From: Escherichia coli
GTDB lineage: Bacteria > Pseudomonadota > Gammaproteobacteria > Enterobacterales > Enterobacteriaceae
Assembly (NCBI RefSeq): GCF_003334385.1
Contig: NZ_QOWN01000015.1
Strand: one strand, 5' to 3'
DNA length: 64,000 nt
The notes beneath the pieces are model-generated. The model saw nothing but the letters and a program-made list of their open reading frames with translations, ran no database searches and was not told where the DNA came from. The position numbers and the translations under genes are program-made. Below are positions 6,329 to 25,151 of this stretch, in pieces (the stretch's first letter is position 1; each line of letters begins with the position of its first letter).

Positions 6329-6477
6329 GACTCCTCCAGTGAGAAAATAGAGCAAAAGATAAGTATAGATGCTGGAGGAGGGGCGATTTTAAATGAGAGG
6401 AATCTGGTGTGCCTCCCTTTCGGGTGAAAGGGAGGAAGGGATATTAAGCAGGTTGCTGACAACGTGCGGGCTTTTTT

Positions 6478-11866: not shown

Positions 11867-13444
11867 TTTCGGGTCGAAAATATCGGTTCCGAGATGGTTG
11901 TAATCCACCTTCTGTAACTGGAAGTTGGTGATGTATATCGGCCCGGCTTTCTTCTCAGATATAAACGGGTATTTGATGTTAATTTCCTTCGCTTTAATCC
12001 CCGTCCACTGGGAGAAAAAGCCTAAGAAGTCATTGGCTGAGCGGCGGGCTTTAATCACACGATGCGCTTTATCGTCGCTGGAAATGACCATAAAAGGCAC
12101 CTGGAAATTTTGCTGATATTTATCATCATGGGCAAGGTATTGCACGTCTTTACCGCGCTCTTTAAAGGCCAGACCGTGGTCAGAAAAGTAAACCAGCGAG
12201 AAGCTGCTGCCGCTGTTGCGTAACTGATCGTACAGCTTGCGCAGTAAATCGTCCGTTTGCGTCATGGTATAGAGATAGCACGACGTTTCTTTCGATTGCA
12301 CAAAGGTTTCGTATTTTCCTTGTGTCCTGTCGCAGGCCTGCGGATGTGAGCCCATCAGATGTAGAACAATCAGCTGCGGTTGCGAGTGCTCTTGCGCCAG
12401 CACTTGAGCGGTCATATCCAGTAACGCTTCGTCTTTGGTGTTTTTATCTGCTTCAAAATTACCTTCTTTCAGGAAGTACACTTCATCTGCTCGTTTGGCG
12501 ATGCTGGCGATAGCGGTATCGTATTCGCCGATTTGACCCTGGTTGGAAAACCACCAGGTCTGGAAGCCCGCGCGATTTGCCAGGGTGACAAAGTTATCCT
12601 GAAACTGTGGTTTGCCATCGACAACGCGATTGAGCGTTAAGCCAAGCGATTTCTGCGTGGAGCCACTGGCGGCAATGTAGTCAGCAAATATCAAACCGTT
12701 AACGCTGCTGGCAAACGGGGTATTGTCCCAGTGACCGCCAAAGGCACCGAGGGCATCGCGACGCGCGCTTTCACCGATCACCACCACATAGGTCTGATAC
12801 TTCGGCTTAACGGCAGTGACCGTCCAGGTATCTTTCATTCCGGAAAGTTTTGCCATCCGTTCTTGCTCTTCAATCACCTCGTTATTATTGACGATGACAT
12901 CCTTAGCAAAACGAAATACCGGATAGCCAGTATCTTTCAGTTTAAATACGCCACCCCAGGCCAGGTTTTGCACGGGAGCAACAAAAAATGTCGCCACACT
13001 GAATACCAGACACAGGCTGTCGAAGGTATTCCAGCGCGCTTTTTCATTCTCTTTTTTTCGCCTGATTGCTATTACGCCGAGCGCAAAAATAAATAAGCCG
13101 ACCAGGTAGCTGTACCACGGAAAAATCGTCAGGATTTCGGTCGACTCTTCCATATTGGTGGAGTGCAATGCCAGCAATGTATTGAAATTAGGCGCGCCGT
13201 AGGCCTGAGCAAAAGGGAAATAACAAGCCGCCACCAGCGAACTGACACCGACCAGAACTTTTTGTACGCGAGGCAATGTTCGCCATAGCAAAAGCAAAAT
13301 AGCCGTAAACGCAGCGGTGTAGAGCAAACTGAAGGGGTAACCTAAGCCGAGGTTAATTAATAGCGACTGTAAAAAGTAGAACGCAGTCCACGGGCTAAAT
13401 ACCCGGCTACGGGTAACAAGCGATTCTTTGAGGGTTAAATTCAT
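11861..13444 (-). CDS. opgE: Phosphoethanolamine transferase for osmoregulated periplasmic glucans OpgE (YbiP)
   Basis: 527-aa ORF with N-terminal TM domain and sulfatase/alkaline-phosphatase-like C-terminal domain. Confidence 0.88.
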   Translation of the reverse strand: MNLTLKESLVTRSRVFSPWTAFYFLQSLLINLGLGYPFSLLYTAAFTAILLLLWRTLPRVQKVLVGVSSLVAACYFPFAQAYGAPNFNTLLALHSTNMEESTEILTIFPWYSYLVGLFIFALGVIAIRRKKENEKARWNTFDSLCLVFSVATFFVAPVQNLAWGGVFKLKDTGYPVFRFAKDVIVNNNEVIEEQERMAKLSGMKDTWTVTAVKPKYQTYVVVIGESARRDALGAFGGHWDNTPFASSVNGLIFADYIAASGSTQKSLGLTLNRVVDGKPQFQDNFVTLANRAGFQTWWFSNQGQIGEYDTAIASIAKRADEVYFLKEGNFEADKNTKDEALLDMTAQVLAQEHSQPQLIVLHLMGSHPQACDRTQGKYETFVQSKETSCYLYTMTQTDDLLRKLYDQLRNSGSSFSLVYFSDHGLAFKERGKDVQYLAHDDKYQQNFQVPFMVISSDDKAHRVIKARRSANDFLGFFSQWTGIKAKEINIKYPFISEKKAGPIYITNFQLQKVDYNHLGTDIFDPKP

Positions 13445-18642: not shown

Positions 18643-19908
18643 TCAAACATCCATGCCCAACGCTCGCTTACCGTGAATGTTGAGGTCGGCAAGCGTAAAG
18701 CGTCCTTCCCAGTTTGTTTCATAGTCCTCGCGCGGGAAGTCGCCCGGCGATGCGCCTTTTTCCAGTGCGGCCTTCACCTTGTGCGCGTAGGCAAGATTTT
18801 TCTCGCACATCGGTGCCGCAGGAATGTACATCACGTTGCCCCAACCTTGTTGATTTTCAACGGGGGCAACGGAATGGATGACGTCGCAGTGCCACCAGAC
18901 GGAGTCTCCGGCTTCGAGTTTTGGAATGCTGGTTAACGCCTCAATCAACAGTGGATGTCATTGCTCTGATACCGGCAATACTCTTCCGGGCGCTACGCCG
19001 CACAGTTCATCCTCCGGCACATCATCAAGCAGCGGACGTAACAGTACGTACGCCATAGCTTCAGGAATGGGCACGACGTGCAGCAGCCCCTGACCAGGCA
19101 GCATATCAGAGAGCGCTGTCCAGCCCTGGAATGTCCGAAACACGGAACATTTGGTGGTGTTGTCCACCGTGTACTCTTCAACTTCCGTACGATGTGCCGC
19201 ATGCCAGGGATCATATTGCGCCAGATTGCCATTAAAGACGTTGGCGAAAACGCGCTGATACGCTGGAAGCAGCCAGCGTTCCAGTGCCCCGGAGTCGGTA
19301 TGCGCTCCAAGACCTTTGGAGGTCGTTCCGGGCGGACGGCGGCGGATACGGTCAGGGTAGATGACGCTCACATCCGGGTTAAACCATTGCTTTCCATCAC
19401 TTTCAAATGTCCACAGACGATTGAGAAACGACTGCGCATTCGCCATTTCTTCACTCTGGCGGGCCTGCATTTGCGCCTGCGACCAGTAGATGGGGTAAAT
19501 CTCGGGACGTGAAGCGCTGAGCGTCCCGAAGAAATTATCGCCGGGGCCTTTGTAGACCTCGTCAAAGCGGTTGCGGTCCAGATAGTCCAGCATCGACTGA
19601 TCCCAGCCTAGCGCTTGTTCGCGGGGGAAATGGCCTTTTATCACCGCACAACCGCGACGTTTAATCTGTTCGCGCTGCTCTGCAGTAACATGACCTGCTT
19701 TGATATCGGCATAAGACAGCACCGGCCAGACGGCATCGCCCTGTGCTTTGAGTGCGTTGATTTCAGCCACTCGCGTGGCAATGTCATCGCTTAGCTGATT
19801 AAAGATCTGCTGGACGTCGCCAAGCTGCGCCCGCAGCGCGTGCTTCATCTGACGGATAGCTGCTTTGTGATCGGCAGGCAATGTGTCGCTGGTAAAAGTA
19901 GAAGCCAT
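18643..19908 (-). pseudogene. ybiU: ybiU (DUF1479 family protein) interrupted by an in-frame TGA at 18958..18960
   Basis: ORFs 18958..19914 (318 aa) and 18643..18948 (101 aa) are in the same frame; read-through gives ...PVSEQ*HPLLIEALTSIP... and a 421-codon ORF from MASTFTSD, the length I recall for intact YbiU. Confidence 0.7.
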
Positions 19909-19923
19909 AACCACCTCTCATTA

Positions 19924-19937
19924 ACTTTCATTCGAAA
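19924..19937 (-). promoter_or_regulatory. Copy A of exact 14-bp motif TTTCGAATGAAAGT (minus-strand reading), 15 nt upstream of ybiU ATG
   Basis: Plus strand reads ACTTTCATTCGAAA; identical 14-mer also at 20946..20959 and 24394..24407. Confidence 0.5.
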
Positions 19938-20014
19938 CCATTCTGATTTGCATGTGACAATATAAGTTATAAATAAGTTAATGCAAGTTTAATGATTTGA
20001 TGTGATGTACAGGA

Positions 20015-20050
20015 TGTAAAAAGAAGGGAAAACCGGAGCGCACGGCTCCG
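20015..20050 (-). terminator. Rho-independent terminator downstream of ybiV
   Basis: Hairpin CCGGAGC-GCACG-GCTCCGG just 3' of ybiV stop, followed on minus strand by UUUCCCUUCUUUUU. Confidence 0.6.
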
Positions 20051-20059
20051 GTAGAGAGG

Positions 20060-20875
20060 TCAGCTGTTAAAAGGGGATGTGTTATCCAGCACCGCCTGAA
20101 TCACATTCAGCGCGCCTTCATGATTATTATCATCGGTAGCGTAACGGGCGATTTGTTTAATGTTTTCCGCAGCATTGCCCATCGCAAAGGAATAACGCGC
20201 CATTTTCAGCATCTCCGCATCGTTACCGCTGTCGCCAATCGCTACCACATTTTGCGGTGACAGATCCCAGCGTTTCAGTAACCGCGAAATACCGTTTGCT
20301 TTATGTAGACCGGGAATAATCAGGTCGATAAAGCCAAAACCACTGGTAACGGGTTTCATAATGCCATCGAGCGCTACGTGCAGTTTGTCGATCACTAACG
20401 GGATTTGTTCATCCGGCAGGTTGAGCGAAAACTTGAACAGTACGTCGTCAATCTCCTGATAATCTTTTACAGGTTTCAGGCGATGGTAGTGTTTTGCCAT
20501 CAGTGCGACAAATGCTTCGGGGGCATTTTCGCTGACATATGCACTTTGCAGACCGCAGGCGACAAAATTGAGTTGCTTATCTTTTAGCAACTCGCCAATA
20601 ACAATCCGCGATTCATGTCGGGTCAGTTCGCCGTGGAACAACTGCTTGCCATGTTCGTAAACCAGTGCGCCGTTTTCCGCGACAAAAGAGATCTCATCCT
20701 TTAGCTCAGGAAAGAATGAAATAAGCTGGTAATACTGATTACCGCTGGCAACAACGAACTTAATGCCGCGCTTTTTCAGTTCCTGATATTGCGCCATAAA
20801 ACGTGGTTGGTTGTACGTTTTGGCGTCGTTAAGAAAAGTACCGTCCATGTCTGTGACGATAACTTTTACGCTCAT
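20060..20875 (-). CDS. ybiV: HAD-superfamily (Cof-type) sugar phosphatase YbiV
   Basis: 271-aa ORF with HAD motif I DMDGTF and C-terminal GDSGND. Confidence 0.9.
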
Positions 20876-20945
20876 AGGTGTGCTCCTGGCTCGAAAATGA
20901 AACCGTAACAGTGTAATAACAATGTGACGCAGAGCACAAATTATA

Positions 20946-20959
20946 TTTCGAATGAAAGT
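20946..20959 (+). promoter_or_regulatory. Copy B of exact 14-bp motif TTTCGAATGAAAGT, 70 nt upstream of ybiV ATG
   Basis: Exact match to copies A and C; lies between ybiW stop and ybiV start. Confidence 0.5.
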
Positions 20960-21020
20960 AAGGATGAAATTGATGATGTGAATGATTTAGCCCGGCGACG
21001 ACGCCGCCGGGCCGAGGAGA

Positions 21021-23453
21021 TTACAGCATATGTTCAGTACGGGCGATGATATCGTCCTGAGCGTCTGGAGAGAGCGCGGTGAAGAACGCGGAATAGCCCG
21101 CGACACGCACTACCAGATCGCGATACTGATCGGGATGTTTTTTCGCATCCAGCAGCGTTTCGCGGGAAACGATGTTGTACTGAATATGCCAGCCTTTATG
21201 CACTTCAAAGAAGGTACGCAGCAGGATCATCAGTTTCTGCTTGTCAGATTCGTTCTCCAGCGTTGCCGGATTCAGTTTCTGGTTGAGCAACACGCCGCCG
21301 AGAATCGCTGCCGTAGGCAGTTTACCCACTGAGCCAATGACCGCAGTAGGGCCAAGATGGTCAGTACCGGAGGCCGGGCTTGCGCCTTCTGCCAGCGGGG
21401 TGTGGGCTTTACGCCCGTCCGGTGTTGCCATAGTCTGCGCGCCAAACGGTACGTTAGCGGAGATTGATGACGTACCCGCGTAATAGTTGCCGCCAACCGG
21501 ACCACGACCGTAGCGCGGATTATGGTACTGTTTCAGTTCGTCGATATAGGTCTGATAAGCGCGAGCCAGCAGCGTATCGACAGTATCATCGTCGTTGCCG
21601 TACTTCGGCGCACCGTTAATCAGCCGCTGACGCAGCTGCTCGTGAGTCAGGCCGTCGAAGTCATCTGCCAGTGCGGCAGCAAGCTGTTGCTGACCAATCG
21701 CACCTTGTTCAAACACCAGTTTCTTCACTGCCGCCAGGCTGTTGCCGAGGTTGGCAATGCCGACCTGCAGGCCAGAAACCCAGTCATATTTCGCGCCGCC
21801 TTGCTTGATACTTTTCGCTCGCTCAATACAGTCATCCACCAGCGCCGAGCAGAGAATATCGTGCACGTTCTCTTCCAGCATGGTGTCGACGACATATTCG
21901 ATTTCGATTGATTTGCGGGTGTAGTAACGGATTTGCGTATCCCACGCGTCCATCACTTCATCGAAGTTGTTGAAGTTACCTGCCGACAACGCTTTTTCTT
22001 GTGGCAGGAACACTTTGCCGCTGGTGGCATCATGCCCGCCTTCCAGCGCCGCCAGCATCACGCGGGCGAAGTTGATAAAGCTCATGCCGGTACAGCGATA
22101 GCCCCATTTGCCACCGACGGCGGTTTCTATACAACCAATCGCTGCGTAGTCATAAGCGTCCTGCGGTTCAATACCGAGTTTAATAAATTCCGGGATCACG
22201 ATTTCGTCGTTGTTGAACGCCGGCATCCCGAAGCCGCAACGGATCACCTGTACGCAGGCGTCGAGGAAATCGTTGCTCATTCCTGCATGGTAACGCACGC
22301 TGAGGTTAGGCTGAGTGGAACGCAGGCGACCGCAGGATTCGAGGATCGCGTAAGAGAGTGGATTCACCGCGTCCATTGGTTGACCATCAACCAGATTTTG
22401 CCCGCCAATAGTGACGTTCTGATACAGCGGACTTCCCGCAGAGGCTTTTGAGTGTGAGCCGGAGCGGATCTTGTTCACTTCCAGCAGTTTCAGCCAGCAG
22501 CTATGCAGCATCTCGATGGCGTGTTCGCGATCCAGCGTCTGGTTGAGTTCAACGTCGCGGCGATAGTACGGGTAGAGATACTGGTCCATACGACCAAACG
22601 ATACTGAGTGACCGTTAGATTCGATCTGCAAAATCAACTGGATGAAGTAACACAGTTGCAGCGCCTGCCAGAAAGTCTGCGGCGGCTGGTGGGCGATAAG
22701 ATCGCAGTTTTCTGCCATCGCCAGCAGTTCATCGCGACGGCTTTCGCGGGTTTCGGTCGCGGCCATTTCACGCGCCAGGGCAGCGAAACGTTCAATGTGT
22801 TCACTGACTGCCACCAGCACGATATCAATCGCTTTCAGGAATTGCTCACCGTGTAAATCTTCCAGCACCGTCAGGTTGATGCGCGAGCGACGTTCCGCTA
22901 CTTTCTCGCGCAGACCATCAAGCCCTTTTTCCAGCAGCAGCGGGAAATTCACCGCCAGGTGCGCATCGCCGGAGGTCATATTGCCTTCCGCTTTAATGAT
23001 TCCGGTCGCCAGCAGACCTTTTTGCTCATCGGTAAACATGCCGTAGCAGCGATCCTGTACGGTCTGACCGCGCCACCACGGGCACACTTCATGCAGAACG
23101 CGTTTGTTCTCTTCGCTCACCGCAAAGCCAGCACCGGGACGATCTGCCAGATCATCAATCTCTTTTTCGATCCACGAGACAGTATATTCCGGGAAGATCG
23201 GCGCGGCGCGAACTTCGCTTGCCTGGTTGCCAATGATCAACTCATCGTGTTTGATCCAGATGGTGCGATTCGCCAGGTGATGCGCCAGTGCCAGCGCGCG
23301 ACGTACCGGGATCGGCTTATCGAGATGTTGTTGATACATCTCGGTATAGTGCTGCGCGCGCTCGGTACAGACTGGCGGTTTCACAATATGCACCAGCGCA
23401 TTTTTGTGCGCTTTAATGCGGTCGCTGAGCGTGTCCAGTTTCAGTGTGGTCAT
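21021..23453 (-). CDS. ybiW: Glycyl-radical enzyme YbiW (PFL-like fold; active-site loop GCIE of the eliminase type)
   Basis: 810-aa ORF; C-terminal glycyl radical motif RVAGYSA; single catalytic Cys followed by Glu (AAIGCIETAVGG) rather than adjacent Cys-Cys. Confidence 0.9.
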   Translation of the reverse strand: MTTLKLDTLSDRIKAHKNALVHIVKPPVCTERAQHYTEMYQQHLDKPIPVRRALALAHHLANRTIWIKHDELIIGNQASEVRAAPIFPEYTVSWIEKEIDDLADRPGAGFAVSEENKRVLHEVCPWWRGQTVQDRCYGMFTDEQKGLLATGIIKAEGNMTSGDAHLAVNFPLLLEKGLDGLREKVAERRSRINLTVLEDLHGEQFLKAIDIVLVAVSEHIERFAALAREMAATETRESRRDELLAMAENCDLIAHQPPQTFWQALQLCYFIQLILQIESNGHSVSFGRMDQYLYPYYRRDVELNQTLDREHAIEMLHSCWLKLLEVNKIRSGSHSKASAGSPLYQNVTIGGQNLVDGQPMDAVNPLSYAILESCGRLRSTQPNLSVRYHAGMSNDFLDACVQVIRCGFGMPAFNNDEIVIPEFIKLGIEPQDAYDYAAIGCIETAVGGKWGYRCTGMSFINFARVMLAALEGGHDATSGKVFLPQEKALSAGNFNNFDEVMDAWDTQIRYYTRKSIEIEYVVDTMLEENVHDILCSALVDDCIERAKSIKQGGAKYDWVSGLQVGIANLGNSLAAVKKLVFEQGAIGQQQLAAALADDFDGLTHEQLRQRLINGAPKYGNDDDTVDTLLARAYQTYIDELKQYHNPRYGRGPVGGNYYAGTSSISANVPFGAQTMATPDGRKAHTPLAEGASPASGTDHLGPTAVIGSVGKLPTAAILGGVLLNQKLNPATLENESDKQKLMILLRTFFEVHKGWHIQYNIVSRETLLDAKKHPDQYRDLVVRVAGYSAFFTALSPDAQDDIIARTEHML

Positions 23454-23458
23454 GGTTG

Positions 23459-24358
23459 TTATCCTCGTAAGGTCGCGGTTAACCCTTTCTGGCAGGCATA
23501 CTGCTGGGCAAAGTCGAGCAGTTCTGGCGCATCAAGCGGTTTTTCCGGGGCGTCATAGGGCAGATTAAGTAAGTGATATTTGTTGATGCCCAGCGTGTGG
23601 TAGGGCAGAAAATGAATTTCGCCAACGTGCAGCTCGTCGGCGGCAAAATCGGTAATGGCTTTTACAGAGGTTTCGTCGGCATTAAAGCCCTGAATCAGCG
23701 GCACGCGGATAATGATTTTTTTGCCCGCTGCGGCGAGTTTTTTCAGGTTATCCAGCACTCTGGCGGCGTTACCGTCGGTCCACTGTTTAAACGGCGCGTC
23801 GGCAACGTGTTTTAAATCGGCAAGAAACAGATCGATATAGGGCAGAGAAGGGGCGATATATTTCCACGGCACATGCAGACAGGTTTCTACCGCAGTATGA
23901 ATGCCTGCCTCGTGGCTGGCTTGCAGTAGCGCCATCGCCATTTCCGGCTGCATAAAGGGCTCACCACCCGAAAGCGTTAAACCGCCGCCGCTGCGATCGT
24001 AAAACGGTTTATCGCGCAGAACGGTCGTCATGATCTCCTCAACGCTTTTCACTTCACCACACACGGTTAATGCCTGTGTCGGACAGCAGTCGGTTAACGC
24101 CGTCAGATGCTCCGGGGTTAACTTTTCCCGATGAATAAGCAAACCATTCAGCGCGCGCTCAATCACTTCCGGCGCGGCCTTAGCGCACAGCTCGCAGCCT
24201 TCCAGACACAGTCGTGCGTCATACAGCAGATCCTGCGTGCGGGCGCGGCTTTCCGGGTTCTGACACCAGCGGCAGCCCAGCGAACAGCCTTTAAGAAATA
24301 CGACCGTGCGGATACCGGGGCCATCATGGGTCGAGTAGCGCTGAATATTGAAAATCAT
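23459..24358 (-). CDS. ybiY: Glycyl-radical enzyme activating enzyme YbiY (radical SAM)
   Basis: Start chosen at [36 protein letters not shown] (CX3CX2C radical-SAM motif) within ORF 23459..24385; additional Cys-rich ferredoxin-like insert. Confidence 0.85.
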
Positions 24359-24393
24359 AGTTGCCTCTCTATTTCGTTCAAGCATTAAAATAC

Positions 24394-24407
24394 TTTCGAA
24401 TGAAAGT
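24394..24407 (+). promoter_or_regulatory. Copy C of exact 14-bp motif TTTCGAATGAAAGT in ybiY/fsaA divergent region
   Basis: 35 nt upstream of ybiY ATG and 81 nt upstream of fsaA ATG; flanked by 6-bp inverted repeat arms ACTTTC/GAAAGT. Confidence 0.5.
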
Positions 24408-24411
24408 TAGA

Positions 24412-24425
24412 TTGATGTGCGTCAA
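24412..24425. promoter_or_regulatory. FNR-like box TTGATGTGCGTCAA upstream of ybiY
   Basis: Matches FNR consensus TTGAT-N4-ATCAA with one mismatch; centred about 60 nt upstream of ybiY ATG. Confidence 0.45.
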
Positions 24426-24488
24426 CTGTTCAGAGAGTTTTCCCGTGATAGTCTACATTCAGACAAAAAGTACATTTTGAGGATGGTT

Positions 24489-25151
24489 ATGGAACTGTAT
24501 CTGGATACTTCAGACGTTGTTGCGGTGAAGGCGCTGTCACGTATTTTTCCGCTGGCGGGTGTGACCACTAACCCAAGCATTATCGCCGCGGGTAAAAAAC
24601 CGCTGGATGTTGTGCTTCCGCAACTTCATGAAGCGATGGGCGGTCAGGGGCGTCTGTTTGCCCAGGTAATGGCTACCACTGCCGAAGGGATGGTTAATGA
24701 CGCGCTTAAGCTGCGTTCTATTATTGCGGATATCGTGGTGAAAGTTCCGGTGACCGCCGAGGGGCTGGCAGCTATTAAGATGTTAAAAGCGGAAGGGATT
24801 CCGACGCTGGGAACCGCGGTATATGGCGCAGCACAAGGGCTGCTGTCGGCGCTGGCAGGTGCGGAATATGTTGCGCCTTACGTTAATCGTATTGATGCTC
24901 AGGGCGGTAGCGGCATTCAGACTGTGACCGACTTACACCAGTTATTGAAAATGCATGCGCCGCAGGCGAAAGTGCTGGCAGCGAGTTTCAAAACCCCGCG
25001 TCAGGCGCTGGACTGCTTACTGGCAGGATGTGAATCAATTACTCTGCCACTGGATGTGGCACAACAGATGATTAGCTATCCGGCGGTTGATGCCGCTGTG
25101 GCGAAGTTTGAGCAGGACTGGCAGGGAGCGTTTGGCAGAACGTCGATTTAA
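24489..25151 (+). CDS. fsaA: Fructose-6-phosphate aldolase 1 (transaldolase-like)
   Basis: 220-aa product [31 protein letters not shown]... inside ORF 24417..25151. Confidence 0.9.

Follow-up and report, generated by a model that had tools for sequence, protein, structure and literature searches.

Which factor, if any, reads the 14-base sequence that recurs in front of ybiU, in front of ybiV and between ybiY and fsaA in Escherichia coli? We analysed a 64-kb stretch of contig NZ_QOWN01000015.1 (assembly GCF_003334385.1; hereafter 'the window') that carries the ybiU-ybiV-ybiW-ybiY/fsaA locus, which was found in 5426/5426 complete E. coli genomes searched. An earlier note on this DNA, made from its letters, had placed three copies of the 14-mer in 5′ regulatory regions and had grouped five genes into one regulon under a factor that it could not name. 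We conclude that the three copies are operators of the DeoR-family repressor YciT (b1284), a reading to which we give, within the mechanism proposed below as a whole, a probability of roughly 0.9. YciT and these five targets have been in print since 2021; the operator finding is correct but not new.

Exact copies of the 14-mer (TTTCGAATGAAAGT) lie at 19924–19937 on the minus strand (operator A) and at 20946–20959 (operator B) and 24394–24407 (operator C) on the plus strand, just where the earlier note had them, and beyond these neither the 64 kb of the window nor 169 kb of K-12 DNA holds another exact copy. The distances that it gave to the start codons were also right: operator A stands 15 nt from the ATG of ybiU, operator B 70 nt from that of ybiV, and operator C, in the control region shared by two divergent genes, 35 nt from the ATG of ybiY and 81 nt from that of fsaA. 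In K-12 (NC_000913.3) the three operators are at 859077–859090, 860099–860112 and 863547–863560. That the copies are not a product of chance was upheld by 100 dinucleotide-preserving shuffles, which gave 0 matches to the 14-mer; when up to three mismatches were allowed, the window held 6 matches against 7.0 expected, with no excess over chance. Operator C extends to a full 16-bp inverted repeat, ACTTTC-GAAT-GAAAGT (24392–24407). The three copies show no extended similarity past 14–16 bp. The GATG-rich sequence that had been thought to follow each copy is no shared conserved element, and it was rejected as a common feature: it corresponds to the ybiU ribosome-binding site at A, to an FNR-like box at C and to unconserved sequence at B.

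Conservation was assessed in 80 loci from different Enterobacterales species (1.32 Mb), collected by a YbiW scan, which provided 61 distinct orthologous intergenic sequences between ybiY and fsaA, 49 upstream of ybiV and 45 between ybiV and ybiU. Column identity was 0.97 at operator A (0.74 in the remaining intergenic DNA), 0.97 at operator C (0.70 in the remainder) and 0.86 at operator B, against 0.70–0.76 for the remaining intergenic DNA over all three regions; the exact 14-mer was present at operator C in 47/61 distinct sequences. Related copies upstream of ybiV and ybiU occupied equivalent positions across species, and 165 of the 198 occurrences of TTTC-N4-GAAA in the 80 loci fell at the three operator positions. 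The earlier note had proposed looking for the motif in orthologous regions, and it is conserved there at all three positions across Enterobacterales. The position of operator B was kept in the 49 sequences, with an orientation that flips between species (ACTTTCATTCGAAA in 15, ACTTTCGAATGAAA in 11 and ACTTTCATATGAAA in 6); its centre reads ATTC, GAAT or the symmetric ATAT according to species, and its arms are fixed. Occurrence in both orientations argues that this is a functionally symmetric, dimer-type site, and the near-invariant CTTTC/GAAAG arms agree with the dimeric inverted-repeat operator that had been predicted.

The exact identity of the three copies, and the position of copy A inside the predicted 5′ untranslated region of ybiU, would also suit a non-functional repeat, left by a duplication or as the scar of a mobile element, or an RNA element of the untranslated region. 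We consider this extremely improbable. The copies have no wider resemblance past 14–16 bp, the sites are conserved across genera as their flanks diverge, and the orientation relative to the downstream gene varies between sites and, at site B, between species. No Rfam match was found in 19700–24700 at E ≤ 1 and, together with the inconsistent orientation, this led us to reject an RNA element or riboswitch.

The identity of the protein comes from published data. Gao et al. (2021, NAR 49:9696, PMC8464067), using tagged YciT, mapped 49 of its sites with a palindromic motif by chromatin immunoprecipitation with exonuclease digestion (ChIP-exo), several of them assigned to ybiV, ybiY, ybiO and ompX. 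RNA sequencing (RNA-seq) of their ΔyciT strain gave log2 fold changes of +7.7 for ybiY, +7.0 for ybiU, +3.5 for ybiW, +2.2 for ybiV and +1.8 for fsaA, which, the deleted gene itself aside, were among the strongest changes seen (PMC8464067); all five genes grouped in the earlier note are thus de-repressed, and they do make up a single regulon. In a Reg-Seq preprint (bioRxiv 10.1101/2025.05.13.653802), YciT was enriched from lysate on the ybiY promoter by DNA chromatography and mass spectrometry, and was described as a repressor of this promoter, which is active only anaerobically. The 'unidentified factor' of the note is therefore one with published ChIP-exo, RNA-seq and DNA-chromatography/mass-spectrometry identification. 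YciT has an HTH_DeoR domain joined to a DeoRC sensor domain, and its gene lies ~485 kb from the ybiU-fsaA locus on the E. coli chromosome.

A link between the motif and YciT was found at other places in the K-12 genome, once ChIP-exo coordinates had been converted from NC_000913.2 to NC_000913.3 (+778/+1977) and compared with K-12 sequence. Comparison with ChIP-exo collections, another check raised in the earlier note, placed 14-mer-like sites exactly beneath YciT peaks at loci unrelated to this one: yfcV (the strongest peak; ACTTTCCGAATGAAAGT), phnA/rdcA (TTTCATTTGAAAG), pdeR (TTTCAAACGAAAGT), sixA (TTTCATCTGAAA), yjiT (TTTCATTTGAAA), yjjI (ATTCATTTGAAAGT), ybiO and ompX. TTTC-N4-GAAA, or its N5 form, is centred under the yfcV, rdcA/phnA, pdeR, sixA, yjiT, ybiO and ompX peaks, and the site upstream of yjjI (K-12, L085 46148–46178) is a one-mismatch variant, ATTC-N4-GAAA. 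The phnA/rdcA promoter has also yielded YciT by mass spectrometry (Ireland et al. 2020). Across the K-12 DNA compared (169 kb), TTTC-N4-GAAA occurred 11 times; 3 of these are the 14-mers and 5 lie in peaks that span 0.5% of the bases.

Two of these sites are within the window. One, TTTCGGGTGAAAGG at 6418–6431 (plus strand), is a weak YciT-type site upstream of ybiO; it is among the 6 matches with three or fewer mismatches and lies exactly under peak 6 (NC_000913.2 844783–844814). The other is the TTTC-N5-GAAA variant at 11867–11879 (plus strand), between ompX and opgE, under peak 7 (signal-to-noise 14.9). Outside the window, the pdeR site (L003 5881–5894, K-12 NC_000913.3 1346880–1346893) lies 138 bp upstream of pdeR and is near-perfect; pdeR precedes yciZ-yciT on one strand with them, upstream, and from its placement the site may be autoregulatory for YciT. 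The genes yjjI-yjjW encode another pair of glycyl-radical-type enzyme and activase, and YciT may touch this second radical-enzyme locus as well.

Several points weigh against YciT as the protein that binds the three copies and acts as we propose. Published peaks at this locus miss the motif, unlike the other YciT peaks checked, which are centred on it. The 'ybiV' peak (NC_000913.2 858455–858488, window 20080–20113) falls within the 3′ end of ybiV, 156 bp away from copy A; the 'ybiY' peak (NC_000913.2 862873–862900, window 24498–24525) falls within the 5′ end of fsaA, 104 bp away from copy C. The published ChIP-exo table lists no peak at copy B. The 14-mer and its sub-strings were not found in the text or the two supplements of the Reg-Seq preprint (10.1101/2025.05.13.653802), and no published text or supplement examined names the 14-mer as a YciT site, the published motif logo, which is a figure, being outside this comparison. 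RegulonDB, according to the same preprint (10.1101/2025.05.13.653802), lists YciT as an activator. As to mechanism, start sites and promoter positions are predictions from conserved −10-like blocks, and the effector of YciT is inferred purely by analogy. Coordinate conversion was rejected as the cause of the offset: +778/+1977 fits the other peaks checked, yet with it the offsets of 156 bp ('ybiV') and 104 bp ('ybiY') persist. The 'ybiV' peak contains a palindrome, CTGAATcacATTCAG.

Such offsets, and the missing peak at copy B, might be expected if a different factor bound the 14-mer and YciT bound only at the ChIP-exo positions, 100–150 bp away inside ybiV and fsaA. We think this improbable. 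A TTTC/GAAA element was sought under the 'ybiV' and 'ybiY' peaks and none was found, leaving the sequences there unlike the motif under other YciT peaks, and motif-bearing sites elsewhere are exactly beneath YciT peaks. The Reg-Seq site for YciT at ybiY is itself ~100 bp from the ChIP-exo coordinate (10.1101/2025.05.13.653802), which matches the 104-bp offset of copy C, and the Reg-Seq site is thus consistent with copy C. In addition, other genera that retain the motif carry yciT in physical linkage with the cluster.

Of the 80 species, at least 17 showed such linkage, with a YciT-subfamily gene directly beside ybiW or fsaA. The cluster-linked copies of Buttiauxella and Franconibacter pass the NCBIfam YciT-specific cut-off, and the other cluster-linked proteins of the subfamily score 351–415 bits, against ~150 bits for the next family. 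In 8 species the gene order is rnb-pdeR-...-fsaA/ybiY-ybiW-yciT-...-yciH-pyrF; as E. coli yciT has its own place between rnb-pdeR and yciH-pyrF, these linked regulators are positional orthologues of it. Some other Enterobacterales thus have ybiY-ybiW-yciT as a single unit, apparently transcribed together, at the yciT locus. E. coli and most of the Enterobacteriaceae sampled keep the targets elsewhere, unlinked from yciT. The statement in the earlier note that no regulator gene sits inside the cluster holds for E. coli and fails for other Enterobacterales, where yciT belongs to it.

One genome with such linkage, that of Rouxiella aceris (L059), has two YciT-subfamily genes near the cluster, and E. 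coli has many DeoR-family paralogues. YciT could share its sites with a paralogous DeoR-type regulator, such as the second Rouxiella YciT-like gene or the regulator of the paralogous pflD cluster, a possibility that we rate slightly below that of a different factor. In E. coli, removal of yciT alone de-represses ybiU and ybiY more than 100-fold, and the next-best NCBIfam families score about one-third of the YciT model: YciT reaches 488 bits on its own model and ≤151 bits on the AgaR, GlpR, SrlR, UlaR and DeoR models. Beside the Rouxiella cluster (L059 10565–17107) are genes for a ROK-family kinase, a GldA-like glycerol/hydroxyacetone dehydrogenase, the second YciT paralogue and a major facilitator superfamily sugar transporter, and one PtsG-like gene; TTTCATATGAAAGT is found 85 bp upstream of the transporter gene. 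This neighbourhood suggests an uptake route independent of the phosphotransferase system under a YciT-type operator.

With YciT as the preferred reader of the 14-mers, the question becomes how its operators are set into the promoters. Four nt from operator C lies an FNR-like box, TTGATgtgcGTCAA (24412–24425), which has 0–2 mismatches to TTGAT-N4-ATCAA in 61/61 distinct orthologous sequences and is always 4 nt from the operator. The earlier note had compared the 14-mer with known consensus sequences; it rightly excluded FNR as a match for the 14-mer, and it missed this conserved neighbour. The predicted −10 of ybiY-ybiW (TTTAAT, 24384–24389, minus strand) is within the conserved block GATTAAAT and puts the start near 24377; the predicted extended −10 of fsaA (TGaTAGTCT, 24446–24454, plus strand) is within the conserved block CGTGATAG and puts the start near 24461. 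The predicted starts are then ~41.5 bp (ybiY) and ~42.5 bp (fsaA) from the centre of the box and, with −10-like blocks on either side, one FNR dimer could serve both divergent promoters. In the ybiY promoter operator C would span −17 to −30, a placement expected to repress strongly, and in the fsaA promoter −54 to −67. Reg-Seq had detected an activator footprint, with the factor unnamed, ~15 bp upstream of the YciT site at ybiY (10.1101/2025.05.13.653802). The centre-to-centre distance of 19 bp between operator and box matches this spacing, making FNR, from its box, a candidate for the unnamed activator. A literature search for ybiY with FNR returned no papers, and no fnr-mutant or FNR chromatin-immunoprecipitation data were found.

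At ybiU, a predicted sigma-70 promoter (19959–19986, minus strand), with a −35 of TTGCAT (19981–19986), a 16-nt spacer and a −10 of TATATT (19959–19964), shows the highest conservation of any block between ybiV and ybiU in the 45 sequences. Its predicted start is near 19952, and operator A would lie at about +16 to +29 of this promoter. The spacer (19965–19980, minus strand) is near-invariant across genera; within it are direct repeats, TTAACTTA-N3-TTAACTTA, similar to the extended half-site of the operator, TTAACTTTC. Judged by this resemblance, the repeats may be auxiliary YciT half-sites, perhaps explaining the 130-fold de-repression of ybiU.

Operator B is immediately upstream of the predicted −35 of ybiV. 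It is adjoined by a CRP-like palindrome, TGTGA-N6-GCACA (20923–20938), which overlaps the predicted −35 and spacer, agrees with TGTGA-N6-TCACA at 9/10 positions and is strongly conserved in the 49 sequences; its centre, at about −27.5 of the predicted promoter, is not at a classical activating position. The predicted −10 (20910–20915, minus strand) reads TACACT here and TAGAAT in most species, and is part of the conserved block TTATTAGAATG; the start would be near 20903. Downstream of ybiV, an intrinsic-terminator-like hairpin (20032–20052, minus strand), preserved by compensating changes across species, parts ybiV from the ybiU transcription unit.

From this architecture we propose the following mechanism. 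YciT would recognize the inverted repeat (A)CTTTC-N4-GAAAG(T), with one operator in each control region and four transcription units under control: ybiU, ybiV, and the divergent ybiY-ybiW and fsaA, which would share copy C. At ybiY-ybiW, YciT bound between the FNR-like box (at about −41.5) and the −10 would exclude RNA polymerase and block FNR-dependent activation. Its operator at ybiU would be just downstream of the predicted start, and those at ybiV and fsaA would be upstream of the core promoter, an arrangement that fits the weaker de-repression of these two genes.

Release by a phosphorylated intermediate of the pathway under control is typical of DeoR-family repressors. By this analogy, the inducer of YciT would most likely be 1,5-anhydroglucitol-6-phosphate or 1-deoxyfructose-6-phosphate, reported as substrate and product of YbiW. 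YbiW is described as a glycyl-radical enzyme that converts the former to the latter in an anaerobic pathway (Ma et al. 2024, cited in the review PMC12441222). The cluster would be on only with substrate present, releasing YciT, and oxygen absent, activating FNR. We offer as a tentative proposal, with chances a little short of even, that YciT is the dedicated sugar-phosphate sensor of a radical-mediated glycolysis of 1,5-anhydroglucitol, combined with oxygen in AND logic through a shared FNR box that the operator can veto. This synthesis is not stated in the literature examined.

The system can be set beside three that are known. It agrees with the published K-12 YciT regulon (PMC8464067; 10.1101/2025.05.13.653802) in its five targets, in repression, in a palindromic motif and in the biochemical finding of YciT at the ybiY promoter, and it differs in that the published peaks are 104–156 bp from the motifs, with none upstream of the promoter that ybiV has of its own. 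Gao et al. (PMC8464067) took ybiUVWY to be a single operon and suggested an osmolarity-related function, and neither their study nor the preprint (PMC8464067; 10.1101/2025.05.13.653802) connects the regulon with FNR, with the catabolism of 1,5-anhydroglucitol or with a cluster-embedded yciT in other genera. The HTH_DeoR and DeoRC architecture is that of the sugar-phosphate repressors DeoR, GlpR, AgaR, SrlR and UlaR. As here, the operators of these proteins are short and AT-rich, with dyad symmetry, and several occur per cluster; CTTTC-N4-GAAAG, in contrast, is specific to YciT, and E. coli yciT is unlinked from its targets. FNR-dependent class II promoters can be combined with a pathway-specific repressor. 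They resemble the present case in the TTGAT-N4-ATCAA-like box ~41.5 bp from each predicted start, in an oxygen-sensitive glycyl radical enzyme as product and in the anaerobic-only activity of ybiY, whereas a single candidate box for two divergent promoters, and a repressor site wedged between box and −10, set this control region apart.

Of the genes concerned, four are on the minus strand: ybiU (18643–19908, ATG at 19908), for a DUF1479 protein; ybiV (20060–20875, ATG at 20875), for a HAD-family sugar phosphatase; ybiW (21021–23453), annotated as a glycyl radical enzyme and reported to cleave 1,5-anhydroglucitol-6-phosphate; and ybiY (23459–24358, annotated ATG at 24358), for the glycyl-radical activating enzyme. 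The fifth, fsaA (24489–25151, ATG at 24489), is on the plus strand. In this strain ybiU carries a nonsense mutation, W317* (TGG to TGA; stop codon at 18958–18960, minus strand), which is its sole nucleotide difference from K-12 ybiU; the gene, to judge from its reading frame, is probably a pseudogene here, despite an intact promoter and operator.

Variation was seen around the operators both within and beyond the species. The 50-mer around copy A (window 19909–19958) was present in 2763/5426 E. coli genomes and that around copy C in 4639/5426. A second ybiU haplotype (locus L004) has a YbiU that is 82–84% identical and a YbiW that is 99% identical; its operator (L004 11517–11530) reads TTTCGAACGAAAGA, with the arms preserved and the centre altered. 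In Salmonella enterica subsp. diarizonae (L012 10516–12846), ybiV runs opposite to its E. coli orientation, fsaA does not adjoin the cluster, and two operator-like sites were found in the ybiV/ybiU divergent region.

To what was published on YciT, the present analysis adds base-pair positions for the operators at this locus, different from those of the ChIP-exo table, the symmetry of the operator, and FNR as a candidate for the activator footprint left unassigned by Reg-Seq; if the sensor reading is true, it would also identify that activator as FNR. The comparative evidence ties YciT not to osmotic stress but to the recently described anaerobic route for 1,5-anhydroglucitol, and points to a specific inducer. 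A functional assignment is thereby offered for a regulator whose physiological role the papers examined had left unsettled, an osmolarity-related one having been proposed.

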